Positions 6,116 to 44,376 of a DNA stretch of 64,000 nt are shown piece by piece (the first letter of the stretch is position 1; every line of letters begins with the position of its first letter). Where the stretch lies: NCBI GenBank assembly GCA_965217185.1, contig OZ244252.1:3480338-3544337 (forward strand). Reading direction: 5' to 3'. The notes under the pieces are model-generated. The model did not search any database. It saw nothing but the letters and a program-made list of their open reading frames with translations, and was not told the DNA's origin. The position numbers and the translations under genes were made by a program. This DNA comes from an uncultured Candidatus Entotheonella sp. Its GTDB lineage: Bacteria; Tectomicrobia; Entotheonellia; Entotheonellales; Entotheonellaceae.

Positions 6116-7182
6116 GCAGCGTAGGCTCTCGCCGCTTCGGCGCTGACGAGGGCCTCCGGGTCCGCCGTCTGCTCCACGAAGTCGCGCGCCCGCTGCAAGG
6201 CGTTGTGCATGTCTTCGGTGGCGGGCTGGTGGCGGGCGAATTTCACCAAGTCGCAGTGTTCCAGGAAGGCACTGAGCAGATCGCGGTGCGCGGCGATGGG
6301 CCCACCGGCAACGAGCATGGCTTCGAGAAACTCCTCCGTGGTCTGCTCCGGGGCGCGCAGGCCGAAGCGCCATTCGATGTAGTGCCGCAGGATGCCGGAC
6401 ACCCGCACGTAGAATTCCTCGATACGCTGCGAGGTGATGAGATCGTCGCTCTGCAAGCGGTCCAGGGCGGCCAGGGCCAACCCGTGCGCCAGTTGCGACG
6501 GCTCGCCGCGAAGCAGACGCCGGCGACGCGCTCGCCGCCACCACAAGATCGCCAGCACAGGGATCGCCATCGCCGCGGCGATGGCGATCCAGGCCCATAT
6601 CGGCAGGCCGCGCCAAGCCAGTTCGACCGGCGGCGCGATGTCTTTCGGTTTTTTGAGGTCGGCCCCTTCCGGCAGAATGGAGGTGACGACAATCTGGAAC
6701 GGCTCCGTGGTCAGTTGTTGCGGCTCCGCGTCCTCGGCGGCGCCCTCTTCGAGAAGCGTAATCGTCAGCGGCGGAATGGCAAGCTCGCCGACCTCCTCGA
6801 CTTCCAGCAGATACTCCCGCTTCCATTGGCGCAGTTGCGGATCCAACATTTCGGGGTCGGGTGTGAAGTCGTTGCGCACCAGGAAGGGGCCGAGGCGGTC
6901 GAAGATCTCCGGGAAGATGACGCCCTTGTCAGCAGGCGCGGTGACCGACAGGGTCAGCCGCAGTTGATCGGCCATCCCCATGCTGCGCCGGTCGGCGGCC
7001 AGGGTGACAATCACGTTGCCCTCGGCGACGTGCTGCTCAAGCGATTCCTCAACCGCAGTGCCCGATTCCTGTGCAGCCGCCTGTATTGCCATCAGGACGG
7101 CAAGGCACGTCAGGAGCACCAGCCAAGTGAACCGCCCGCCGCGATCAATAGTCCGAAACGCCCCGCCAAGATGAGTCATCAT
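6112..7182 (-). CDS. Membrane protein of the Bat cluster (BatD/DUF4381-like)
   Basis: Signal peptide, a central TM helix (LPIWAWIAIAAAMAIPVLAILWWRRARRRR) and a helical C-terminal domain. It sits between the DUF58 and VWA genes. Confidence 0.6.
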   Translation of the reverse strand: MMTHLGGAFRTIDRGGRFTWLVLLTCLAVLMAIQAAAQESGTAVEESLEQHVAEGNVIVTLAADRRSMGMADQLRLTLSVTAPADKGVIFPEIFDRLGPFLVRNDFTPDPEMLDPQLRQWKREYLLEVEEVGELAIPPLTITLLEEGAAEDAEPQQLTTEPFQIVVTSILPEGADLKKPKDIAPPVELAWRGLPIWAWIAIAAAMAIPVLAILWWRRARRRRLLRGEPSQLAHGLALAALDRLQSDDLITSQRIEEFYVRVSGILRHYIEWRFGLRAPEQTTEEFLEAMLVAGGPIAAHRDLLSAFLEHCDLVKFARHQPATEDMHNALQRARDFVEQTADPEALVSAEAARAYAA

Positions 7183-7202: not shown

Positions 7203-8081
7203 CTAATGCCAGCGCCGCTCCCGCTTGCGGAAGAACCGCACCAGGGACGGCATGTACGGCCGGTCCGTAAATACCTCGATCTCGTCAATTCCAAGGGATT
7301 GGAACAGTTGCCGCCGTCGCTCGGCCGTCGCTGCGCGCCGCCGCCGGTACGCCTCCCGCACCGCCTTGCTGCTGGTATCCAGCACCATCAGGGCGCCGCT
7401 CTCCAAGTCCCGCAGGGTGACGAACCCGAGCCGCGGCAGGCACAACTCACGCCGGTCGGTAACGCTGACCGGAATCACGTCGTGCCGCCGATACGCCAAG
7501 CGCAGCGGCTGGTCATAGCCCGGCGTGAGAAAGTCGGACACCAGGAAGCACACCGTCCGGCGGCGGCTGATGCGGAGCAGGTATTCCAGCGCCGAGCCGA
7601 TGTCGGTGCGCTGCTGCCGGGGCTGGAAATACAGCACGTCCCGGATGATCCGCAGCACGTGGCGCTTGCCCTTCTGCGGCGGGATGAATTTCTCGACGCG
7701 GTCTGTGAACAGGATGAGGCCGACCCGGTCGTTATTCAGGACCGCGCTGAGCGCCAGCACGGCGCACAACTCGGTGGCCACCTCCGCCTTCAGCCGAACC
7801 GCGCTGCCGAAACGGCCTGAAGCACTCAGGTCCACCAGCAGCATGACGGTCAGTTCCCGCTCTTCCACGTACTGTTTGACGTACGGCTGACCGCGGCGAG
7901 CCGTGACGTTCCAATCAATCGTGCGAATTTCGTCGCCCGGCGCGTATTCCCGCACCTCGGAAAATTCCATCCCCCGGCCCTTGAAGGCGCTGTGGTACTC
8001 GCCCCCCAGGACATCCCGCACCAAGCGGCGGGTGCGGATATGAATCTGGCGCACGTGCTTGAGAATGTCGGGTGGAAGCAT
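7203..8081 (-). CDS. DUF58 family protein (VWA-like, MoxR partner)
   Basis: HSAFKGRGMEFSEVREYAPGDEIRTIDWNVTARRGQPYVKQYVEERELTVMLLVDLSASG is the DUF58 signature region. Confidence 0.85.
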   Translation of the reverse strand: MLPPDILKHVRQIHIRTRRLVRDVLGGEYHSAFKGRGMEFSEVREYAPGDEIRTIDWNVTARRGQPYVKQYVEERELTVMLLVDLSASGRFGSAVRLKAEVATELCAVLALSAVLNNDRVGLILFTDRVEKFIPPQKGKRHVLRIIRDVLYFQPRQQRTDIGSALEYLLRISRRRTVCFLVSDFLTPGYDQPLRLAYRRHDVIPVSVTDRRELCLPRLGFVTLRDLESGALMVLDTSSKAVREAYRRRRAATAERRRQLFQSLGIDEIEVFTDRPYMPSLVRFFRKRERRWH

Positions 8082-12764: not shown

Positions 12765-15700
12765 CACTACGATTAGCAGCTCGATTCCGGCCGTGCTCCT
12801 GGCGGTCGCCCTGATTCTGGGCATCGCCGGCTGCGACGTAAGCGACGATAGGGACCTCGTACCGACCTTCGAACAGAGCAGTATTTCGGACAAGACTTAC
12901 GTCCAGAACCTGGCGATCGACAGCGAAACGCTGCCAGAGGCCATCGGCGGCGACGGCACGCTGACCTACACCATTTCACCGGACCTGCCGGCGGGCCTGG
13001 CCTTTGAGCCGGTGACACGGCTGCTGTCCGGCACCCCCACCGTGTCGCAGTCGGCGACCCTGTACACCTACACGGCAACGGATAGCGATACGGCGGACCC
13101 GGACTCGGCGTCGCTGACCTTCACCATCACGGTGGAGGAAGACCTCGTGCCGACCTTTGAACAGAGCAACATCCCGGACAAGAGTTACGTCCACCACCTG
13201 GCGATCGACAGCGAGACCCTGCCAGCGGCCACCGGCGGCGACGGCACGCTGACCTACGCCATTTCCCCGCACCTGCCGGCGGGCCTGACCTTTGACCCGG
13301 CGACGCGCCTGCTATCCGGCACCCCCACCACGGCGCAGCCGGCAACCCTCTACACCTACACGGCAACGGACAGCGATACGGTAGACCCGGACTCGGCGTC
13401 GCTGACCTTCAGCATCACGGTGAGAGACCTCATGCCGACCTTCGAACAGGCCAGCATCCCGGACAAAAGCTACGACCGGGACCTGCCGATCGACAGCGAG
13501 ACGCTGCCGGCGGCCACCGGCGGCGACGGGGCGCTGACCTACGCCATTTCCCCGCACCTGCCGGCGGGCCTGACCTTTGACCCGGCGACGCGCCTGCTAT
13601 CCGGTACGCCCACCACGGCGCAGCCGGCAACCCTCTACACCTACACGGCAACGGACAGCGATGCGGTAGACCCGGACTCGGCGTCGCTGACCTTCAGGGT
13701 CACGGTGGAGGCAGTGGCTTCGGTGAGCATCTCGGCCGCCGCCACTGAAGTGAACGAAGGCGACGACCGCCGGCCCATCGGCGTCACGCTGACGCTGAGC
13801 GAGGCCGTCACGGGCGAGGTCGCCATTGCCCTGGCCTCCACCGGCACCGCGCGGCTGGGCAGTGACTTCGACCTCGCCAGCACCGAAGTCACGGTCGTCG
13901 AGGGCAGCACCCAAGCCACGACGACGATCACACCGATTCGCGACCTGGAGGCGGAATACGATGAAATCATCACCCTCAAGATCGACTCGGTTGCCGGCAG
14001 AGGCGAAATCGGCGCGCCGTCGTCGGTCCGTATCGTCATCCGCGACCTCGGCGCGCCGCTGCCGAACGAATACGCGGTGTTGGACGCGTATATGCTGTTA
14101 TGGGGCGGCGAGACATACGACATCGACACAGACGCCCTCTACTTGACCTATATCGTCAGGAACACCGGCCGTGTCGCCGCGTCTCCCACCGAGGCCATCT
14201 TGTTAACCACGACGGACTTGTTCTCCCAAACCATCCCTTTCCGGCCGCTCTCCACCCGGTCGGTGCCTGCCCTGGAGCCGAATGGTTCACGGTTCTTTGA
14301 CACGATCTCGGTTTCGTTCGACGAATTGGTCCCCGGCAGCAACAACTACCTTGTGCTCGTGGTCCGGCCGGTCGCCGAAGAGGACCCGGACGGCAGGGGC
14401 GGCGTGGAGGACTACACCGCCGTTTTTCTGAGCGACGGACACCGTATCCCCACTACCTGCACGGGCTTCGAGCGAGACACCAAGCCGGGAACCCGGGATT
14501 CCCTATTCGAGCAGCAGTGGGCGCTCCGCAACACCGGCCAGATGTCCTTCGCCGCCAACGGCGGGGTGGCCGGCCAGGACCTGAACATGGGGCGGACGCT
14601 GGTCGACGGTCCAACCGGCGCCGGGGTGCAGGTGGCCGTGGTGGACACCGGCCTGGAAATCTGCCACCCGGACCTCGCCGCCAACGTCGAACCCGGTCTG
14701 TCATACAACTTCAATCACCCGGACTGGCTCGGCGCACGGGCCGACGATCCGTTCCTGCCGACGGTGCTGGGCGATCACGGCACCAGCGTGGCCGGACTGA
14801 TCGCCGCGGCGGCGAACAACGGCGTCGGCGGGCGCGGCGTGGCGCCGGAAGCGCGCCTGCGCGGTTTCAATTTCCTTTCGTTTCCTCTGACGTCCGCATA
14901 TCTCGATGCTCTCGGCATGAGCAGCGAGAGCCCACAGTCCGACGACGTGCACGTCTTCAACATGAGTTTTGGCTCCTCCGGCAGCGCAGAGAACCTGACG
15001 GTTGACGAGAGGGAACTGTTCCGGGTCGGCGTCATAGATCTCCGGGACGGCCGGGGCGCTCTGTACGTCAAGGCCGCCGGCAACCAATTCGACGACTGCA
15101 CCGAGCTGGACGACGATCGACAGCCGGTTGCGCCGCGGCTCGATCTCAGCGCCGAACTCGGCTGCTTCGCCGCCAACCTGGATGGCGAAAACAACCTGCC
15201 CTACGTGATCGTGGCAGGCGGCTTCAGCGCCAACGGCAAACGCTCGAGCTACTCGTCTGCTGGCGCCACCTTGTGGGTGGTGGCCCCGGCAGGGGAATTT
15301 GGCTCGGATCACCCGGCCATGATCACCACCGACCAGATGGGTAGCGACCGCGGCTATGTGCAGTTCGGCCGCGGCTTGATCGCTGGCACCGAGGCCAACC
15401 CGCTGGGTGATTACATCAGCCTCTTCAACGGCACCTCGGCCGCCGCCCCCAATGCGTCGGGCGCTATCGCCCTGCTGCTGGAGACGCAGCCTGAACTCAC
15501 TTGGCGCGACGTGAAGCACATCCTCGCCAAAACGGCCCGCCGGCTGGACGCAGACATCCCCCGCGTGCGGGCGGCATTCGGCGGCACGCCGGCGGTGCTG
15601 CAGCACGGCTGGATCACCAATGCCGCCGGCTACCACTTCCACAACTGGTACGGCTTCGGCGCCATCGACGTGGACGCCGCGGTGGCTTTTGCCGCTACCC

Positions 15701-20703: not shown

Positions 20704-21581
20704 GTGCGCCGTGGAAGGCGCCATTCTTCAGCGGGTGCGAATCCCGCCCGGCAACTGTCGTTCCAGCCGGTAGCAGTCGGAGCGGATGATGGAGGCAACG
20801 ACATCGTCTGAAGCACTCCGACGCAACGGGCCGCCAAGGGCGGCTTAGCGACCATGCGGGCCGCAACGTGAGTGAACGTCGAGCAGGCCTCGAAAGCGGT
20901 GATGCGGAAGCCGACCCGCCCTGATAACGGGGAAGGCTGCTACCTGTCGGGAAGCGAGCGACACATGCACCGACGGGTTCCGCCGGGGTATTGGCGGCAG
21001 CACGCATGGAAGAGGGGAATGGACGCAACACGGGAAGCCCTGTCCGGTGGCGTGGCACGCGCCAACCGACAGCCCGCGAGGGTCAGGTCGGGCCGGCAGG
21101 GTGGCGGAGAGGCTTGCAGTACCGGTGAAGCCGGGTAACGCCGGCGGAGGGAAGGGGCCTCATGTGAGGAGCGATGTCCAAAGGGAGAAGGGTCACGGGA
21201 GTGGCTATGCCTATTACCCCGAATGATGACCAGAAAACCCGGCAGCATCACATGCCCAAGTGAAGGAACCGTGCCTTTAGGCGCGGGGTCGTCGAGGCGT
21301 CAACAGGCTCGACGACCCACTGAACGCAACGCGCGCCGCAGGGCGGAAGCTGTGCCGCTCCCGCAAGTCCGATTACCTGCTGCCCGCGGTTGCCAGGGTG
21401 TTCCGTGTGCGAGACGCATGATCCCACTGGAGAGCCGGATGCGGTAAATCCGCCTGTCCGGTTCGGAGAGCGGCGACTGGAAACGGAGCCACGGCGAGGA
21501 GTGAGGCACCGGCATTGCGAAAGCTGCCGGGAACAGCTACCCCCGTTCGCCTACCGCCACCGCGCCAGTCGCCGACTCTAC
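20704..21581 (+). mobile_element. ORF-less group II intron (ribozyme only)
   Basis: 5' GTGCG at 20704. A domain III-like segment reads GGUGAAGCCGGGUAACGCCGGCGGAGGGAAGGGGC. Domain IV is reduced to an 11-bp hairpin (21286-21318). Domain V at 21432-21464 has the AGC triad and a 2-nt bulge. Domain VI pairs 21467-21480 with 21565-21579, has a bulged A at 21575 and ends in AC at 21581. Confidence 0.7.
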
Positions 21582-31538: not shown

Positions 31539-31559
31539 AGTGGCCAGTGGTTAGTGGCT
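31539..31559. repeat. Three tandem heptamers GTGGCCA GTGGTTA GTGGCTA
   Basis: Read directly. Same unit type as the arrays flanking the four-helix-bundle cassette at 43.4-43.9 kb. Confidence 0.7.
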
Positions 31560-31585
31560 AGCAAAAACAAAAGAGGGATAAAAGC

Positions 31586-33983: not shown

Positions 33984-36900
33984 ATGGACGACCGGTTCTT
34001 CAAGTTCCCGATCCTCAACTCCCCCTACGAATACCCGTCGCGCCACTGGGAGCTCGACGAAAGCGGCCAGCCGACGAACCGCGTCCTCAACACTCGCCGC
34101 CGCGTCTCGTTCATCAGCCCCATCCCCAAGCCGAAGAAACGACGAGGCGCTGCTGCGGAGCAGGCGAGCCTGGTGTTCGACGAAGCGTCCCGGAAGCTCG
34201 CTGACGGCGGCCAGCAGTACGACCTTACGGCCATCATCAATGAGGTGCGCCGGCAGGTCGATGTCTGGCGCAACCTTCCGAGCCCCGACCAGTGGCGAGT
34301 GACCCCGGAAACCGCCCGCCTGCTGCGGCACTGGCGGCACCACCGCTTCAGCGACATCCGCCCCTTCTTCTGCCAGATCGAGGCGGTCGAGACCGCCATC
34401 TGGCTCACCGAGGTGGCGTCGCATGCCGGCCGCGCCGGCAGGGATTTCCTCGACAATCTGGCCAGCGCCAACCGCGACGCCAATCCGGACCTGCCGCGGC
34501 TGGCCCTCAAGCTGGCCACCGGTACCGGCAAAACCACCGTCATGGCGATGCTGATCGCTTGGCAAACCGTCAACGCGGTGCGCCGGCCGCAGAGTTCCCG
34601 GTTCACCCGCAGCTTCCTGGTGGTGACCCCGGGCATCACCATCAAAGACCGTCTGCGGGTGCTGCAGCCCAACGACCCGGACAGCTATTACCGCGGCCGG
34701 GAACTGGTCCCCACTGACATGCTCGCCGACCTGGACAAGGCCAGGATCGTCATCACCAACTATCACGCCTTCAAGCTGCGCGATCGCCTGGAGTTGTCCA
34801 AGGGCGGCCGCGCCCTGCTGCAGGGCCGCGGCGAGCCGCTAGCCGCCCAGGAAACCGAGGGCCAGATGCTGCAGCGGGTGATGCCGGAACTGATGGGCGC
34901 CAAGGGCATCCTGGTGCTCAACGACGAGGCGCATCACTGCTACCGCGAGAAGCCGGGCGAGGACGACGAGGGCGACCTGAAAGGCGACGACCGCAAGGAA
35001 GCCGAAAGGAACCGCGAGGCGGCGCGGCTATGGATATCCGGGCTGGAAACGGTGCAGCGAAAGCTCGGCCTCAACCGCGTCTTCGACCTCTCGGCAACGC
35101 CGTTCTTCCTGCGCGGCTCCGGCTACGCCGAGGGCACGCTGTTCCCGTGGACGATGAGCGATTTCTCCCTCATGGACGCCATCGAGTGCGGCATCGTCAA
35201 GCTGCCGCGCGTGCCGGTGGCCGACAACATCCCCGGCAGCGACATGCCGAAATTCCGCAATCTCTGGGAGCACATCGGCAGGCGGATGCCCAGGAAGGGA
35301 CGCGGCAAGGCCACCGGCCTCGACCCGCTCAGCCTGCCGGTCGAACTGCAAACCGCCCTGCAAGCTCTCTACGGCCACTACGAAAAGCAATTCGAGTTGT
35401 GGCAGGAGGCGGGCATCGAGGTGCCACCCTGCTTCATCATCGTCTGCAACAACACCTCCACCTCGAAGCTGGTGTACGACTACATTTCGGGCTTCCTGCA
35501 CGACAGTCCCGACGGTTCCAAGACGCTGGTGCCGGGCCGCCTAGCGCTGTTCCGCAACTACCACGAGGACGGCACGCCGATCGGCCGCCCGCGCACGCTG
35601 CTCATCGACAGCGAGCAGCTCGAATCCGGGGAGGGGCTGGACAAGAATTTCCGGGACCTCGCCACCAACGAGATCGAGCGCTTCCGCCGCGAGATCGTCG
35701 CTCGCACGGGCGACCGCCGGCAGGCCGAAAACCTCTCCGACCACGACCTGTTGCGCGAGGTCATGAACACCGTGGGCAAGGCCGGTCGGCTTGGCGGCTC
35801 GATCCGCTGCGTCGTCTCCGTCTCCATGCTGACGGAGGGCTGGGACACCAATACCGTCACGCACGTTCTCGGCGTTCGCGCCTTCGGCACCCAGCTGCTG
35901 TGCGAGCAGGTGGTTGGCCGCGCCCTGCGCCGCCAGTCCTATGACCTGAACGAAAAAGGCCGCTTCGACGTGGAATACGCCGACGTTCTCGGCGTCCCCT
36001 TCGACTTCACGGCGAAACCGGTGGTCGCCCCACCGCAACCGCCGCGCGCGACCGTTCAGGTCATGGCCGTCACCCCGGACCGCGACGCCTGTGAGATTCG
36101 CTTCCCGCGCGTCGCCGGCTACCGCGTCGAGCTGCCGGACGAGCGCCTCAGCGCCGCGTTCAACGACGACTCGACCTTCGTCCTCACGCCCGACCTGATC
36201 GGCGCCTCGGTCACCCGCAACGAGGGGATCATCGGCGAGGGAATCGACCTCAACCTGGTGCATACCGACACCCTGCGGCGCTCGACCTTGCTTTACAACC
36301 TGACCCAGCGGCTGCTGGTGACCAAGTGGCGCGATCCGAACGAGGAACCCAAGCTGCACCTCTTCGGCCAGCTCAAGCGCATCACCGCCCAATGGCTGGA
36401 CAACCACCTCGTCTGCAAGGGCGGCACCTACCCGGCGCAACTTATGTACCAGGAACTGGCCGACACGGCCTGCGAGCGCATCACCAACGCCATCACGCGA
36501 GCGGCAATGGACAGCCGCCCGGTCAAGGCGGTGCTCGATCCCTACAACCCCGCCGGCTCCACGCGGCACGTTCACTTCACCACCTCCAAGACCCTCCGCC
36601 GCCAAACGGACGCGCGCCGTTGCCACGTCAATTGGGTCATCCTCGACAGCGATTGGGAAGCGGAGTTCTGCCGCGTCGCCGAATCCCATCCGCGCGTCCG
36701 TGCCTACGTCAAGAACCAGGGCCTCGGCCTGGAGGTGCCGTACCGCAGCGGCTCCACCACCCGAACCTATATCCCCGACTTCATCGTGCTCCTGGACGAC
36801 GGCCGCGACGACCCGTTGCATCTCATCGTCGAGATCAAGGGCTACCGGGGAGAGGACGCCAAGGCGAAGAAGGAGACGATGGAGACCTATTGGGTTCCGG

Positions 36901-37106
36901 GCGTGAACAACCTCCGTGCCTACGGCCGCTGGGCCTTCGCCGAGTTCACGGAGGTGTATGAGATACAATCGGACTTCGAGGCCAGGGTGGAAGCGGCGTT
37001 GAACGTTGATCGAGAGAGGCAAGCCGCCCAGACTATGCGGACCGTCCGGCGAACTGCAGGGCAAGTTGCGATTCGAGCGCCAGTTGACGCGGGACGAGGT
37101 GAATGA
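33984..37106 (+). CDS. res: Type III restriction enzyme Res subunit (SF2 helicase plus PD-(D/E)xK nuclease)
   Basis: LKLATGTGKTTVMAM (motif I), VLNDEAHHCY (DEAH), SVSMLTEGWDTNTVTHVLG (motif VI region), and the C-terminal YIPDFIVLL...LIVEIKG nuclease motif. 1040 aa, uninterrupted. Confidence 0.85.
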   Translation: MDDRFFKFPILNSPYEYPSRHWELDESGQPTNRVLNTRRRVSFISPIPKPKKRRGAAAEQASLVFDEASRKLADGGQQYDLTAIINEVRRQVDVWRNLPSPDQWRVTPETARLLRHWRHHRFSDIRPFFCQIEAVETAIWLTEVASHAGRAGRDFLDNLASANRDANPDLPRLALKLATGTGKTTVMAMLIAWQTVNAVRRPQSSRFTRSFLVVTPGITIKDRLRVLQPNDPDSYYRGRELVPTDMLADLDKARIVITNYHAFKLRDRLELSKGGRALLQGRGEPLAAQETEGQMLQRVMPELMGAKGILVLNDEAHHCYREKPGEDDEGDLKGDDRKEAERNREAARLWISGLETVQRKLGLNRVFDLSATPFFLRGSGYAEGTLFPWTMSDFSLMDAIECGIVKLPRVPVADNIPGSDMPKFRNLWEHIGRRMPRKGRGKATGLDPLSLPVELQTALQALYGHYEKQFELWQEAGIEVPPCFIIVCNNTSTSKLVYDYISGFLHDSPDGSKTLVPGRLALFRNYHEDGTPIGRPRTLLIDSEQLESGEGLDKNFRDLATNEIERFRREIVARTGDRRQAENLSDHDLLREVMNTVGKAGRLGGSIRCVVSVSMLTEGWDTNTVTHVLGVRAFGTQLLCEQVVGRALRRQSYDLNEKGRFDVEYADVLGVPFDFTAKPVVAPPQPPRATVQVMAVTPDRDACEIRFPRVAGYRVELPDERLSAAFNDDSTFVLTPDLIGASVTRNEGIIGEGIDLNLVHTDTLRRSTLLYNLTQRLLVTKWRDPNEEPKLHLFGQLKRITAQWLDNHLVCKGGTYPAQLMYQELADTACERITNAITRAAMDSRPVKAVLDPYNPAGSTRHVHFTTSKTLRRQTDARRCHVNWVILDSDWEAEFCRVAESHPRVRAYVKNQGLGLEVPYRSGSTTRTYIPDFIVLLDDGRDDPLHLIVEIKGYRGEDAKAKKETMETYWVPGVNNLRAYGRWAFAEFTEVYEIQSDFEARVEAALNVDRERQAAQTMRTVRRTAGQVAIRAPVDAGRGE

Positions 37107-39438: not shown

Positions 39439-39482
39439 CCCGAATGGCGTGACCGGATATAACTCAATTGAGGACCGAGTCG

Positions 39483-40582
39483 ATGGCTCGTAAGGCCAAA
39501 AGCCGAAAACAGATCGAAACCCTGCGGCACCAGGACGCCTCGCGCAAGAACATCCCCACCGCCGAGTACCAGGCGGTGATGGCGGCGGACGACCGCAGCC
39601 CCATCGAGGTCGCCTACGGTCGCCGCAACCGCGACCTCGACCCACAGCTCGTCTGGCGCGGCAAGGACGCGCAGGATTGGTCCGACCTCGTGGTGCAGGC
39701 GCCGCCGCTGTTCATCCAGGAAAAGGTTCACCCCAAGATGCTGATCGACGACCTGCGGCGCCGCAGCGAGGAAGCAGGGGCCGGGAAAGCCGACGACGCA
39801 TCCGGCTTCCAGACCGATCTCTTCGCCGACTTCAACGGCCTGCCGAGCGCCGACGCCCGCACCGAGTTCTACCAGCACGACGCCAACTGGTCGAACCGTA
39901 TGATTCTGGGCGACAGCCTGCAGGTGATGGCCTCGCTGGCGGAGCGCGAGGGGCTGCGCGGCAAGGTGCAGTGCATCTACGTCGATCCGCCCTACGGCAT
40001 CAAGTTCAACTCCAACTTCCAGTGGTCCACCACCAGCCGCGACGTGAAGGACGGCAACGCCGCCCACATCACCCGCGAGCCGGAGCAGGTGAAGGCGTTC
40101 CGGGATACGTGGCGGGACGGGATTCACTCGTACCTGACGTACCTACGGGATCGGCTGACCATAGCGCGGGATTTGCTGACGGAGAGCGGCAGCATCTTCG
40201 TGCAGATCGGGGACGAGAACGTGCACCGGGTGCGGGCGCTGATGGACGAGGTTTTTGGGGAGGAGAACTTTATCGCGGAAATCGCGTTCCAAAAGACGTC
40301 TTCGACATCTTCAGAATCACTGTCAGGTGTTTTTGATCTACTTCTCTGGTTCGGCAAATCGATGACTTGGAAATATCGACCGCTGTTTCAAATTAAAGAG
40401 CTTGGCGGTACGGGAACAACTCAATATTCCTTTGCTGAAAATGCCGATGGTTTAAGGCGAACACTTGCCGAATGGGATGAGTTAAGCGTCAACAGGAAAT
40501 TTCTCAAAGTTTTTTCTCATGGTGATATCACGAGCCAAAGACCAGCGCAGGGAGAAGATGTTCGTAAATTCACTTACGAAGG
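39483..40582 (+). pseudogene. mod: Type III (beta-class) N6-adenine DNA methyltransferase Mod, 5' fragment, interrupted by an IS
   Basis: Motif IV in CIYVDPPYGIKFNSNF. The reading frame runs into the IS and stops at 40641-40643. Confidence 0.85.
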
Positions 40583-42076
40583 AGCCACTTGCAAAACTCC
40601 GCTAGTTTGGCCTCGGAGCGGTTGTCATGAGACCGTACGGTGAATCATTTGCCGTCGGTGGTTCCAATTGCCACGAATTCAGCCATGGCGGTGCCAAGTT
40701 CCGGCTCCCGTCTTGCGATGCGGACGCAACTCTCCCCCCTGCGTACAGGACAGCAGCGTGTGCCGGGATGGAGGAAACGGGGCCGCGAGACCAGCTTCAG
40801 GTCACCAAGCGCATCAACTGATCAACCGTGAGCGCCACAATCCCGAACATCAGATGACACAGCACCTTGGCATGGCCGCGCACGCGCACGCTGCGACCTC
40901 CGAATTCATCCTTGAGGCGACCATTGACGCGCTCGACGGTCGAGCGTTCGTGGTAACGTCTCTCCTCAGACAGGACCAACCCACAGGCACGCCGTGCCTG
41001 CCTCTCCTGCCGCAGCGCCTGCTTGCGCGCGCCGCTGCGGGGGTTGACGTCGATGATCGCAACATGACCCAGGGCGCGGCTGTGGGCGCGGATTTCCGGG
41101 GCATCGTAGGCGCTGTCCATCAGGTCATACAGGTTGCGGACTCGCTCCGCCGTCAGGGTCGCCAGCGGGATGGCGACTTGGCTGTCGTGCAGCGACGCCG
41201 AGGTAAGCAGGCAACTGACCGGGATGGCGCCGTCGGCCGCGTCAATATGCAACTTGTAGCCGCTCCATGACGTCTGATAGCCTTTGGCGTCGCGCTTGAC
41301 GCCAATGTCACAGGCGTACGGCAAGTCGGCGAGCATCTCCGGCAGGGTCATGTTGCGCTGGCGCTCCAGACGGCGCGGCTCCGTGGGGCGCTCCTCGCCC
41401 TTGCGCGGACGCCCGCGCCGCCGCTTCGGCTTGGCCGGCTGCGGCGCCTTCGGGGTCGGTCTCTCGCGCCCTTCAATCGCCGTCGAATCGCGTGAAATAT
41501 GGCCTGCCAGACGCTCACCCTGGGTGCGTTTGATCAGCGCCTCGTGCAGGTGGCTCGGCAAGGCGCTGTCGGCAAATTCGGCAAAGGCACGTGAAAACGT
41601 CGCCTCGCTCGGAATGTGCTTGACGCTACGCCAGCCGCACAACCGGCGCAGGGTGCTGTCGTGGCGCAGACGATCAAGCAACATCCGGGTGCTAACCAGC
41701 GCGAAGACGGCCTTGGCGATGAAGGCGCGGGCTAAGGCCGCGCGGTCGCTTGGCGGACAGCCGCGACGCCGGTGCTGGTACGGCAGCAGCGTTTCCACCC
41801 GCACCCATTCGAGCACCATGACGAAGCGCTGATGGCGTTCCCCCAGCGCCCCGATCGTTTCCTCAAGCTGCGGGAACAGCAGCGCTTGAAAGCAAGACCA
41901 GTAACTCGATAGTATCTCACGTAAGGCCATTGGGGTCGTTCCTCCTGATTCGGTTGTTTGACAACTCAACAGAATCAGAAAGCGGCCCCAATGTCCACCA
42001 ATCAGCCCCAGAGCCTGCCCCGTGCTTGACACGGAGAAAGAAAATCCCACTCGTACACGCAATTCTGCAAGTGGCT
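40583..42076 (-). mobile_element. Insertion sequence (IS4/IS5-superfamily DDE transposase), 1494 bp, with 6-bp target duplication CGAAGG
   Basis: Terminal inverted repeats AGCCACTTGCA (40583-40593) and TGCAAGTGGCT (42066-42076). CGAAGG occurs at 40577-40582 and again at 42077-42082. Confidence 0.85.
40797..41930 (-). CDS. DDE transposase (DUF772-like N-terminus plus DDE_Tnp_1-like core)
   Basis: MALREILSSYW..., PPSDRAALARAFIAKAVFAL, HISRDSTAIEG, LMDSAYDAPEI, RSTVERVNGRLKDEFG. 377 aa from the ATG at 41930. Confidence 0.8.
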   Translation of the reverse strand: MALREILSSYWSCFQALLFPQLEETIGALGERHQRFVMVLEWVRVETLLPYQHRRRGCPPSDRAALARAFIAKAVFALVSTRMLLDRLRHDSTLRRLCGWRSVKHIPSEATFSRAFAEFADSALPSHLHEALIKRTQGERLAGHISRDSTAIEGRERPTPKAPQPAKPKRRRGRPRKGEERPTEPRRLERQRNMTLPEMLADLPYACDIGVKRDAKGYQTSWSGYKLHIDAADGAIPVSCLLTSASLHDSQVAIPLATLTAERVRNLYDLMDSAYDAPEIRAHSRALGHVAIIDVNPRSGARKQALRQERQARRACGLVLSEERRYHERSTVERVNGRLKDEFGGRSVRVRGHAKVLCHLMFGIVALTVDQLMRLVT

Positions 42077-43454
42077 CGAAGGAAAATCATTTCAGGTAAA
42101 GAAGGGCACTTTCAAGACAGACGCGAGTGGTCTGGAACGTATCTCACGCGCAAAACGCATGATCTTCATTGGGAACACGCTTCGATATGTTCGGTTCTTA
42201 GATGACTTCAGTATCTTCCCCTTCTCGAACCTCTGGACTGATACCACCACATCTGGATTTTCTGACCCCAAAGTATACGTCGTCCAGACGAACCGCTCGG
42301 TGGTTGAACGTTGCATCCTCATGGCCACCGACCCCGGCGACCTTGTCCTCGACCCGACCTGCGGCGCCGGCACCACCGCCTACGCCGCCGAGCAGTGGGG
42401 CCGCCGCTGGATCACCATCGACACCTCTCGCGTCGCCCTGGCGCTTGCCCGCGCCCGCATCATGGGGGCGCGCTACCCCTGGTATCTGCTCGCCGACAGC
42501 CATGACGGACAACTGAAAGAAGCCGACATCGCCCGCAAGGCGCCCGCCGACACGCCCACCTACAACGACATCCGCCAAGGGTTCGTGTACGAGCGCGTGC
42601 CCCACGTCACCCTCAAGTCCATCGCCAACAACGCCGAGATCGACGTGATCTGGGAGAAATGGCAGGAGACGATTCAACCGCTGCTTGCGCAACTGGGCGT
42701 CGTTGTAGGGGCGACGCATGCGTCGCCCCTACCAGAATGGGAAATCCCAAGAGACCTGCCAGACCACTGGCCGCCGGAGGCTGCCCCGCTGCACGAACAG
42801 TTCTGGACGGCAAGGGTCGTGCGCCAGCGCGAAATCGACGCCTCCATCGCCGCCAAGGCGGACTCCGAATACCTCTACGACAAGCCTTACGAGGACAACA
42901 AGAAGGTGCGCGTTGCCGGGCCGTTCACCGTCGAAAGCCTGTCGCCGCACCGCCTGCTGGGGGTGGACGAAAACGACGAACTCATCGACAACGTCGCCGA
43001 AGACAAACTCGGCTACGGCGGCAAGCAGGACTTCGCCGGCATGATCCTGGAGCACCTCAAGACCGCCGGCGTCCAGCAGGCGCACAAGGACGACCGCATC
43101 ACGTTCGCCGCCATCAAGCCCTGGCCCGGCTACCACGTCTGCGCCGAGGGAACCTACGTCGAAGGCGACGCCGATTCCGGCGCCGAGAAGCGCGCCGGCA
43201 TCTTCATCGGCCCCGAGTTCGGCACCGTTTCCCGTCCCGACCTTGTGGAAGCCGTCCGCGAGGCCGCCGACGCCGGCTTCCACGTGCTGATCGCCTGCGC
43301 CTTCAACTACGACGCGCACGCCTCGGAGTTCAACAAGCTCGGCCGCGTCCCCATCCTCAAGGCCCGCATGAACGCCGATCTGCACATGGCCGGCGACCTC
43401 AAGAACACCGGCCAAGGCAACCTCTTCGTCATCTTCGGCGAGCCGGATATTACA

Positions 43455-43482
43455 GTGGTCAGCGGCCAGTGGCTGGTGACCA
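43455..43482. repeat. Four tandem heptamers GTGGTCA GCGGCCA GTGGCTG GTGACCA (left flank of the nested cassette)
   Basis: Read directly from the sequence. Confidence 0.75.
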
Positions 43483-43506
43483 GCAAGGGCAGGATGGTAG
43501 CGAATT

Positions 43507-43875
43507 ATGAGCACGTTAAAGAGTTATCAGGACTTGGAAGTGTGGAAGAAATCAATCGACTTGGCAGAGACGGTCTATCGGCTCTCGGCGCAGTTTCCGC
43601 CGGACGAGAAATACGGTCTCAGCAGCCAGGTACGGAGATCGGTGGTCTCGATCGCAGCGAACATCGCGGAGGGAGCGGAGCGACAGGGGACGAGGGAGTT
43701 TCTGCAATTTCTGGGGATCGCGAGCGGGTCTCTAGCCGAGACGGAGACCTTCCTGATTCTGGCGCAGCGATTGGGGATGGCCTCACCGGATCAGGTGGCT
43801 CCGATATTGAATCAGGCGGGAGAAATCGGGCGGATGCTCAACGGTCTGAAACGCTCGCTGCACTCCAGAACCTGA
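43507..43875 (+). CDS. Four-helix-bundle protein (23S rRNA intervening-sequence protein family, PF05635-like), nested inside mod in the +1 frame
   Basis: MSTLKSYQDLEVWKKSIDLAETVYRLSAQFPPDEKYGLSSQVRRSVVSIAANIAEGAERQGTREFLQFLGIASGSLAETETFLILA is the family signature. Confidence 0.85.
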   Translation: MSTLKSYQDLEVWKKSIDLAETVYRLSAQFPPDEKYGLSSQVRRSVVSIAANIAEGAERQGTREFLQFLGIASGSLAETETFLILAQRLGMASPDQVAPILNQAGEIGRMLNGLKRSLHSRT

Positions 43876-43892
43876 GCAGCGCCGATTTCCCG

Positions 43893-43927
43893 CTTTCACT
43901 GACCACCGGCCACTGGTCACAAGTCAC
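43893..43927. repeat. Five tandem heptamers CTTTCAC TGACCAC CGGCCAC TGGTCAC AAGTCAC (right flank, inverted relative to the left array)
   Basis: Read directly. 43899-43918 is a 16/20 reverse-complement match to 43464-43483. Confidence 0.75.
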
Positions 43928-44376
43928 TGTTCATGGCGTCGACGTGTTCCACCCCAATACCGGCGAAATCCGCAGCGACAACGCCGACGGCATCGCCTGC
44001 TGGTTCGTCGACACCGATTACAACGAAGAGAGCTTCTTCGTCCGCCACGCCTATTTCCTCGGCGCCAGCGACCCGTACAGGGCACTCAAGACCACACTAA
44101 AAGCCGAAATCAACGAGGAGGCGTGGACGACGCTGCGCAGCGATACGTCACGGCCGTTCGCCAAGCCGCAGTCCGGCCGCATTGCCGTGAAGGTGATCAA
44201 CCATCTGGGGGATGAGGTGATGAAGGTGTTCCGGGTGTGAGGGCAGTTGGATGCCCAAATATAGGAAAATTAGCCGAGTTTATCGTCTTTTTATAAACTG
44301 GCATAACTTATCTATAAACGGTCCGAAATCGCTCACGTAAAGGGGCTAAGGTCAACGCGACAGCGGGGGATTTATC

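Follow-up and report, generated by a model that had tools for sequence, protein, structure and literature searches.

A four-helix-bundle gene nested in a second frame of a Type III mod gene from Candidatus Entotheonella, a probable dual-coding passenger of defence methyltransferase genes

How can a complete gene lie inside another gene, on the same strand and in another frame, with both frames intact? This question is raised by a stretch of 64,000 nucleotides (nt) from an uncultured Candidatus Entotheonella sp. (contig OZ244252.1, positions 3,480,338 to 3,544,337), the whole of which is called the window here. A mod gene of the Type III restriction-modification (R-M) kind in this window contains a block that encodes, in frame +1 of mod, a 122-amino-acid protein of the family first found in intervening sequences (IVSs) of 23S rRNA. 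The mod open reading frame (ORF; 42159-44240) crosses the block without a stop. We consider it probable that the block is an IVS-type four-helix-bundle (4HB) cassette that defence methyltransferase genes carry in frame as a dual-coding passenger, and we infer its mobility and function from comparison with related loci.

The boundaries of the block were set by aligning Mod to its homologues. Its most conserved motifs, GNLFVIFGEPD and GVDVFHPNTGE, enclose a cassette-bearing segment of 486 nt (43449-43934, + strand). The sequence-only reading of this DNA had described two heptamer arrays and an ORF here, and all three were present as described. The left array (43455-43482) consists of four units of the AGTGG type (GTGGTCA GCGGCCA GTGGCTG GTGACCA) and reads VVSGQWLVT in the Mod frame, and the right array (43893-43927) consists of five units in inverted orientation (CTTTCAC TGACCAC CGGCCAC TGGTCAC AAGTCAC), read as LSLTTGHWSQVT. 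Between them, on the same strand, lie the nested 4HB gene (43507-43875) and, upstream of its start, a leader (43483-43506) with a conserved GGNAGRATG / GCGAAYT motif (alignment A2). From its sequence, this motif is a possible weak Shine-Dalgarno site, and a similar leader precedes the free-standing 4HB copies of locus L087. Scanning of the block for promoters and terminators gave no match inside it, and no Rfam family fitted the cassette.

The nested product is assigned by its profile matches to the S23p / 23S rRNA IVS family of 4HB proteins. It matched PF05635 (23S rRNA IVS protein) over profile positions 1-106 of 106 (E 3e-39, 133.8 bits; cutoff 33.8), TIGR02436 (E 1e-37, 128.3 bits; cutoff 24) and NF008911 (143.6 bits; cutoff 137). 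Residues 5-119 matched the 4HB structure 2gsc (XCC0516; E 1e-23), which we take to be a homopentamer, and 2rld was also matched. The length of 122 residues is within the range of the family (about 115-130), the core motifs of which are W13, SQxRR and ANIAEG; S40, Q41, R44 and N52-I53-A54-E55-G56 were invariant in the 4HB alignment (A6). Identity with Avd of the diversity-generating retroelements (DGRs) was considered and rejected. The weak matches indicate a shared fold family, but they fell below the curated cutoffs for both PF22296 (E 1e-6, 29.1 bits; cutoff 40) and NF033474 (E 2e-7, 31.3 bits; cutoff 80), and neither a reverse transcriptase nor template/variable repeats were seen beside mod, which argues against a DGR.

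The same Mod site was then compared between genomes. When GTDB species genomes were scanned for Mod relatives, 80 loci from many phyla were obtained, and the allele state of each was taken from the stretch between the two motifs given above. The site was empty in 57 loci, which have a hairpin of 48-111 nt, typically IDILDAEDGQIQVKVN. Ten loci carried a 486-nt block like that of the window (type A), and eight had a block of 459-636 nt (type B), the 4HB of which is about 50% identical. Three loci were remnants (390, 270 and 225 nt), in which the 4HB ORF had been lost by multiple-of-three deletions and Mod was open. The last two were an unrelated 225-nt insert and a type-A copy, L079, in which mod is frameshifted. 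The segment was 486 nt long in 12 of 12 other type-A loci as well. In nearly all filled loci the 4HB ORF was intact, in frame +1 and started at nt 59 of the segment, and Mod-frame stops were absent from all of them but L079. Altogether the cassette was found at this one site in more than 25 loci of many phyla, including Mods only 30-40% identical to that of the window. The proposal of the sequence-only reading that the cassette is tolerated as an in-frame insertion is thus supported in that both frames are intact at the same site across phyla, but the block was not simply added to the gene: it takes the place of a native 16-codon beta-hairpin tip of Mod, a hairpin of 48-63 nt in empty alleles. 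This was clearest from L021, an empty allele from an Entotheonella metagenome-assembled genome. The window Mod flanks are 91-94% identical to it at the nt level right up to the hairpin, and in the window the 486-nt block stands in place of the 60-nt L021 hairpin and does not split it.

To learn which frame is selected where, codon-position entropies were calculated for 11 type-A segments, all exactly 486 nt long. Upstream in mod, Mod codon position 3 was the most variable (0.90), and the same position had the highest variation in the two arms (nt 1-58 and nt 428-486; 0.93 and 0.96). Inside the ORF (nt 59-424), it was codon position 3 of the 4HB frame that varied most (0.95 vs 0.42 and 0.31). 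Translated in the 4HB frame, the ORF region showed 74% amino-acid identity; the Mod frame and the third frame gave 50% and 49%. In the 102 codons downstream of the block, the Mod frame was still constrained in filled alleles, and the stop codon was at its usual place. These patterns point to purifying selection on the 4HB frame inside the block and on the Mod frame in the arms and the downstream domain, with the switch at the ORF boundaries. By this measure the nested gene is real, and the arms are apparently translated as part of Mod (VVSGQWLVTS... and ...LSLTTGHWSQVTV). Between the arms, the Mod frame is a spacer of about 120 residues, selected only to stay open. It is rich in Gly, Ser, Asp and Arg, as had been described from the sequence, and unconstrained in its residues. 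A functional Mod-frame linker was rejected, because the identity in the Mod frame equals that in the non-coding third frame. One stretch of the nested ORF, codons 7-24 (43525-43580), had a third-position entropy of 0.34-0.56, compared with about 1.0 in the rest of the ORF. Nearly the same sequence is found there in the free-standing L087 copies, and therefore an extra constraint at the nucleotide level is likely for this stretch.

Could chance alone account for the open host frame? The frame is indeed free of stops, as the sequence-only reading had claimed, but the shuffling that it had proposed as a check does not set the window apart. When the synonymous codons of the 4HB ORF were permuted, the mod frame stayed open in 15% of trials, and with codons drawn from host usage it was open in 20%. 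The probability of an open frame calculated for each filled locus ranged from 0.005 to 0.35. A different result was obtained from the comparison with free-standing homologues. Among 75 free-standing 4HB genes from metagenomes, the equivalent host frame contained 4.3 stops on average and none in only five (7%), whereas the nested copies examined contained 0 stops (Fisher P ~6e-20). In that frame, each of the four tandem L087 copies has 3-4 stops, and 8 were counted in a copy from a Nostoc plasmid. It is only through this comparison that the openness of the host frame is seen to be non-random. The other overlapping frame was open in 0 of the 75 free-standing genes (mean 6.7 stops), and none of the nested copies found was nested in that frame. 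The host would thus always stand in the same frame relation to the 4HB gene because the other overlapping frame is never open in free-standing genes.

The two arms had been proposed to pair as a long stem, and this was confirmed in the alignment. RNAalifold on the 11 full segments gave a 21-bp helix that closes the cassette, in which 43455-43479 (+) pairs with 43896-43920 (+), and 92.6% of the cells were paired. When the partner was slid by 1-3 columns, the paired cells fell to 27-54%. With types A and B aligned together (17 sequences), 93% of the cells were paired, and 21 compensatory cells were counted vs 8.9 +/- 3.1 in shuffled alignments, a level reached by 0 of 500 shuffles, although the shuffle controls overstate the significance, since the compensatory changes are few and the sequences related. 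Several pairs of the stem are mostly G-U and are conserved; the structure therefore fits a sense RNA, not a DNA cruciform. The hairpin made of the window arms alone had a free energy of -50.8 kcal/mol vs -27.2 +/- 3.3 kcal/mol for shuffled arms, and arms-only hairpins across most loci had -33 to -51 kcal/mol (z -3 to -8). The fold of 501 nt around the block, which had been suggested as a check, also includes the stem (z -2.15). A second long-range helix is a weak candidate. Its 5' strand (43536-43545, +; GGAAGUGUGG) lies within the ORF stretch of conserved synonymous sites and its 3' strand (43882-43890, +; CCGAUUUCC) in the 3' trailer, so that GGAAGUC (codons 10-12) would pair with GACUUCC. 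The pairing is consistent without compensatory changes, and the trailer motif GAYTTCC is kept in type-A cassettes and in L087.

A stem of this kind raises the question of whether the segment stays in the message. In the rRNA IVS of Coxiella, the stem is cut by RNase III, and 2-3 tandem heptamers (GACAGAT), the copy number of which varies between strains, precede the ORF (PMC4990558). If the mod transcript were likewise cut, or the cassette removed, at the stem, no read-through Mod would be made and the open frame would be incidental. The resemblance of the stem to the RNase III-cleaved ones (PMC4990558), its conservation with G-U pairs and the chance level of the open frame in the window alone agree with such processing. 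Against these stand the host frame that is open in about 36 nested copies vs 7% of free-standing ones, the remnant deletions that are all in frame, and the C-terminal domain that is under selection in a contiguous frame. Moreover, we know of no case in which bacteria religate an mRNA after RNase III cleavage. We regard processing of this sort as most improbable; removal at the RNA level, which had been offered earlier as one route to Mod, gains no support from a host frame and a C-terminal domain that stay under selection.

How the cassette came to be at one site in so many Mods was considered from the divergence of cassettes and flanks. The window cassette shares 89-90% identity with the cassettes of L083 and L084, the Mod flanks of which are just 79-84% identical, and across type-A pairs the divergence of the cassette and that of the near flanks were uncorrelated (rho -0.07). 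In the Mod tree, filled and remnant alleles are scattered among empty ones, and the most conserved parts of Mod lie on either side of the site. Because of the flank identity with L021, the incongruence between cassette and flank, and the interspersed alleles, the data fit a transfer of hairpin and cassette, as one segment, from allele to allele by homologous recombination. For rRNA IVSs, spread by homologous recombination or gene conversion via conserved flanks has been proposed. One could suppose instead a single ancient insertion in each methyltransferase family, followed by vertical descent or whole-gene transfer and repeated losses, with no mobility today. The fixed site, 486-nt length, ORF offset and frame of the type-A copies are what such a history would leave, and so are the presence of the cassette in Mods only 30-40% identical and the lack of a mobility gene. 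However, the canonical hairpin of the empty allele is not regenerable from the arms by simple deletion, an empty allele is the one 91-94% identical to the window flanks while more distant alleles share cassettes, and cassette and flank distances do not follow each other. Two cassette types about 50% identical at one site, gene-less hairpin derivatives in the same host gene and tandem cassette arrays, described below, also speak against it, and we judge an immobile ancient insertion unlikely.

The frameshifted copy L079 bears on another possibility, in which the heptamer arrays act as a slipped-strand switch and the gain or loss of a 7-nt unit turns the mod frame on and off, as in phase-variable Type III mod genes. 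In L079 (7369-7847), the left array is short of exactly one heptamer (GTGACCA) relative to L011, and seven is not a multiple of three. The strain-variable heptamer number of the Coxiella rRNA IVS (PMC4990558) is also in keeping with unit gain and loss. The likeness to phasevarion mod genes is therefore one of short non-multiple-of-three repeats within a Type III mod ORF and one natural single-unit frameshift. The arrays of the cassette are different in being short and imperfect (4-5 units), which makes them poor slippage substrates, and in forming an inverted pair that flanks a gene. The other filled Mod loci are all in frame, 12 others of exactly 486 nt, and the nested gene would be left unexplained. 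A switch of this kind is accordingly quite improbable in our view.

To see whether the arrangement is confined to Mod, the Mod-frame peptide of the block was searched against 1.84 billion representative proteins. It gave 56 matches, mostly Mods or Mod fragments. The others were DrmMI/Type IIG-like methyltransferases (P0282, P0287 and P0292), PglX of the bacteriophage exclusion (BREX) system (P0294 and P0295) and HmaB (P0291). In the DNA of L088, L090, L091, L094 and L095, an intact 4HB ORF was found in each host, always in frame +1 and with the host frame open, and the inverted heptamers differed (GAGTGGC, ACAGTGG, GGGRAYA, CAGTGGT). A profile of the non-Mod host-frame peptides found nothing at E <= 0.001 in a set of 5.8 billion proteins. 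In an independent sample of 80 metagenome loci picked by 4HB similarity, five copies were nested, 5/5 of them in PglX or Mod at the same sites; the rest were free-standing but for one rRNA copy. This copy (L123, 1-540) belongs to the same 4HB subfamily and lies within a 23S rRNA gene, with inverted GGCGAGA/TCTCGCC arrays around it; we take it to be a classical 23S IVS, probably at helix 45. The further copies, including one in 23S rRNA, that the sequence-only reading had suggested looking for were thus found. In a plasmid collection, 4HB genes occurred only free-standing and were mostly cyanobacterial.

Heptamer arrays accompany the 4HB genes throughout the family. Of 68 4HB loci, 51 have a period-7 array on one or both sides, 27 of them on both; the same array score was reached by 3% of control regions and by none of the shuffles. 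The left and right arrays are reverse complements of each other, and the unit sequence varies between elements. The heptamers might have been ubiquitous simple repeats with no tie to cassette ends, and uninterrupted Mods might have contained an equivalent segment; neither was found, because inverted arrays flank unrelated 4HB genes and a true 23S IVS. In L088, two gene-less inverted heptamer hairpins (6846-6977 and 7785-7877; -75.6 and -35.1 kcal/mol) lie in frame in the same PglX/DrmMI-like gene as a nested 4HB, and from their sequence look like non-autonomous derivatives. In L087 (3780-5940, intergenic), four near-identical free-standing 4HB cassettes stand in tandem with heptamer arrays between them, and this row ends in an array of about 200 nt to its left and in one of about 90 nt to its right. 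The window itself has a solo three-unit array of the same heptamer type (GTGGCCA GTGGTTA GTGGCTA) in the spacer between two dehydrogenase genes. Its existence had been noted in the sequence-only reading, and its position, given there as 31539-31559, is one base further on (31540-31560, +). The array is also kept in L001, a related metagenomic contig, and is possibly related to the cassette arms as a form without a gene.

The hosts suggest that the cassette could instead be a working part of defence methyltransferases, either with the 4HB as an accessory or regulatory subunit or with the stem tuning the expression of Mod, PglX or DrmMI. All identifiable hosts in the two independent samples are defence DNA methyltransferases, purifying selection acts on the 4HB frame of nested copies, the stem is conserved, and the 4HB is related to Avd, which binds nucleic acids. 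Conversely, the cassette is absent from close Mod alleles, with most of the sampled sites empty, the remnants keep Mod and lose the 4HB, and the Mod-frame interior is unconstrained. The same cassette type also occurs in rRNA and in intergenic tandem arrays, and the restriction to such hosts could stem from the horizontal mobility of the host genes or from the ease with which they tolerate insertions. We hold a working part to be rather unlikely. An addiction reading, in which loss of the methyltransferase is lethal and the cassette thereby safe, was also considered and rejected, because the methyltransferase itself is required for restriction; this is so in Type III, BREX and Type IIG-like systems.

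Among known systems, the passenger cassette is closest to the IVSs in the rRNA of Leptospira, Coxiella, Xanthomonas and others. It shares with them a PF05635 protein, an ORF enclosed by stem-forming inverted repeats, heptamers, a fixed site amid highly conserved host sequence and a patchy occurrence suggestive of horizontal spread. Its host, however, is the protein-coding mod, so that the cassette must be a multiple of three, free of stops and dual-coding, and the RNase III excision that defines rRNA IVSs would destroy an mRNA. It is not filed as an rRNA IVS, because it lies outside the defining location (23S helix 25/45 or the 16S gene); we regard it as a cassette of this sort that has a new type of host. 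Rickettsia palindromic elements (RPEs) are in-frame palindromes in ORFs, translated and compatible with the function of the host protein (PMC10969869). The cassette likewise lies in an ORF with the host frame preserved, and the gene-less in-frame hairpins of L088 are closely similar to RPEs. Yet RPEs are about 150 bp long and gene-less, whereas the cassette carries a conserved gene in another frame, and the repeat family, the hosts (here defence methyltransferases) and the taxa are different. As in other same-strand nested genes, two frames are open over 122 codons with evolutionary evidence of selection, but here a pre-existing gene was inserted without overprinting, and the host frame is selected only for openness. 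Inteins and homing-endonuclease genes are similarly selfish inserts at fixed conserved sites, with presence/absence polymorphism, remnants and a preserved host product. The cassette differs from these in having neither splicing motifs nor an endonuclease and in having its ORF out of the host frame, and the insert is presumably kept in mature Mod as a loop. Heptamer arrays within genes have been noted, unexplained, in Geobacter (PMC2700814). In the open-access literature, including a 2026 comparative paper on BREX, we found no account of 4HB genes nested in methyltransferase genes.

The host gene is assigned to the Mod of a Type III R-M system from its methylase profile and the adjoining Res. 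N6_N4_Mtase (PF01555) was matched on both halves of the gene, the N-terminal part (39468-40581, +; 98% identical to the intact gene of L001) and the C-terminal part (42078-44240, +; Type III-like, open from 42159 to its natural stop), and the intact orthologue P0006 matched the PADLOC model MTase_III PDLC03632 with 1358.8 bits. Between the halves lies an insertion sequence (IS; 40582-42077, -) with 20-nt terminal inverted repeats (40582-40601 and 42058-42077) and a DDE_Tnp_1 + DUF772 transposase (40797-42062). It interrupts the target-recognition region of mod, about 1.4 kb upstream of the block, and had gone unmentioned in the sequence-only reading. The same R-M locus includes the Res subunit, with a ResIII helicase and a RE_endonuc endonuclease domain (33984-37106, +), and mod also has a SLFN/AlbA_2 protein and an AAA_15 ATPase as neighbours. 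L001, a contig of 6.78 Mb, is syntenic with the window and 96.5-98.4% identical outside 40272-42308. It encodes an uninterrupted Mod of 1084 amino acids carrying the same block, with a cassette 97% identical to that of the window. Across the stretch of about 2 kb around the IS (40272-42308) the two are unrelated, which suggests a swapped recognition domain in addition to the IS. Since the IS has already broken mod, the nested arrangement in the window is a relic and reflects a recently functional ancestor. In two divergent Mod homologues (L089, 5001-6638; L120, 1727-4246), a DUF559 (Vsr-like endonuclease) domain is inserted upstream of the cassette site. Elsewhere in the window, domains of a group II intron were matched by Rfam on the + strand (20729-20871 and 21430-21581; RF02003 91 bits, RF00029 42.8 bits), and long tandem repeats occur at 438-869 and 12853-13711, with Gly/Asp-rich units of 27/153 nt that are RTX-like in look and three units of 285 nt. 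No rRNA gene was found within the 64 kb.

How, then, could mod carry the passenger? Since the segment is a multiple of three and free of stops in the Mod frame, ribosomes on mod could read through it, and the 4HB protein would be translated from the mod mRNA by its own start. The arms may be tolerated as an extension of the native hairpin, and only the frame whose stops can be removed by synonymous changes would survive. The cassette would spread between alleles via homologous recombination or gene conversion over the extremely conserved flanks. Several observations weigh against this account. The mod of the window is already disrupted by the IS, and its open frame taken alone is not significant (P 0.15-0.20). 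Translation of both the read-through Mod and the 4HB is predicted from the sequence, and the Shine-Dalgarno-like motif is 12-13 nt from the AUG, which is far. As an RNase III site, the stable mRNA stem might just as well lead to the destruction of the mod message, and its compensatory changes are, as said above, few. In the HmaB host, L094, a stop follows 20 codons after the cassette. The Mod tree in which the alleles are interspersed is poorly resolved. Neither a transposase nor a target duplication nor a recombination junction was identified, and mobility is deduced from the distribution. The AlphaFold2 model of the 693-aa part of Mod (72-sequence alignment; mean pLDDT 47.7, pTM 0.27) is too poor to show the arms extending the hairpin. 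Its highest confidence (pLDDT 76-83, helices) was at Mod residues 441-480 and 555-580, that is 43479-43598 and 43821-43898, and at these cassette ends is probably an artefact of the conservation imposed by the 4HB frame.

Beyond the passenger itself, a wider proposal can be made tentatively, which we think possible though on balance doubtful. The 4HB genes and inverted heptamer hairpins may form one widespread class of mobile cassettes, with gene-less derivatives, which colonises rRNA genes, intergenic sites and, specifically, defence methyltransferases (Type III R-M, BREX, DISARM-like and Hma) as dual-coding in-frame inserts. The 4HB would recognise its own hairpin, as RNA or single-stranded DNA, and would thereby drive the transfer from allele to allele or control the expression of the host methyltransferase.

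To our knowledge, IVS elements and S23p/4HB proteins have for more than 30 years been known only from rRNA genes, with a function unknown since the 1990s. An IVS-type cassette is now found inside protein-coding genes. It is a clean case of same-strand gene nesting in dozens of independent lineages, and bacterial cases so well supported are rare. For annotation it means that gene callers hide the nested gene or split the host, and that the disordered-looking insert of about 150 residues in these enzymes is what results from reading a second gene out of its own frame. Every host in which nesting was found is a defence methyltransferase (Mod, PglX, DrmMI-like or HmaB), and this provides a testable link between the cassette and the regulation or evolution of anti-phage defence.

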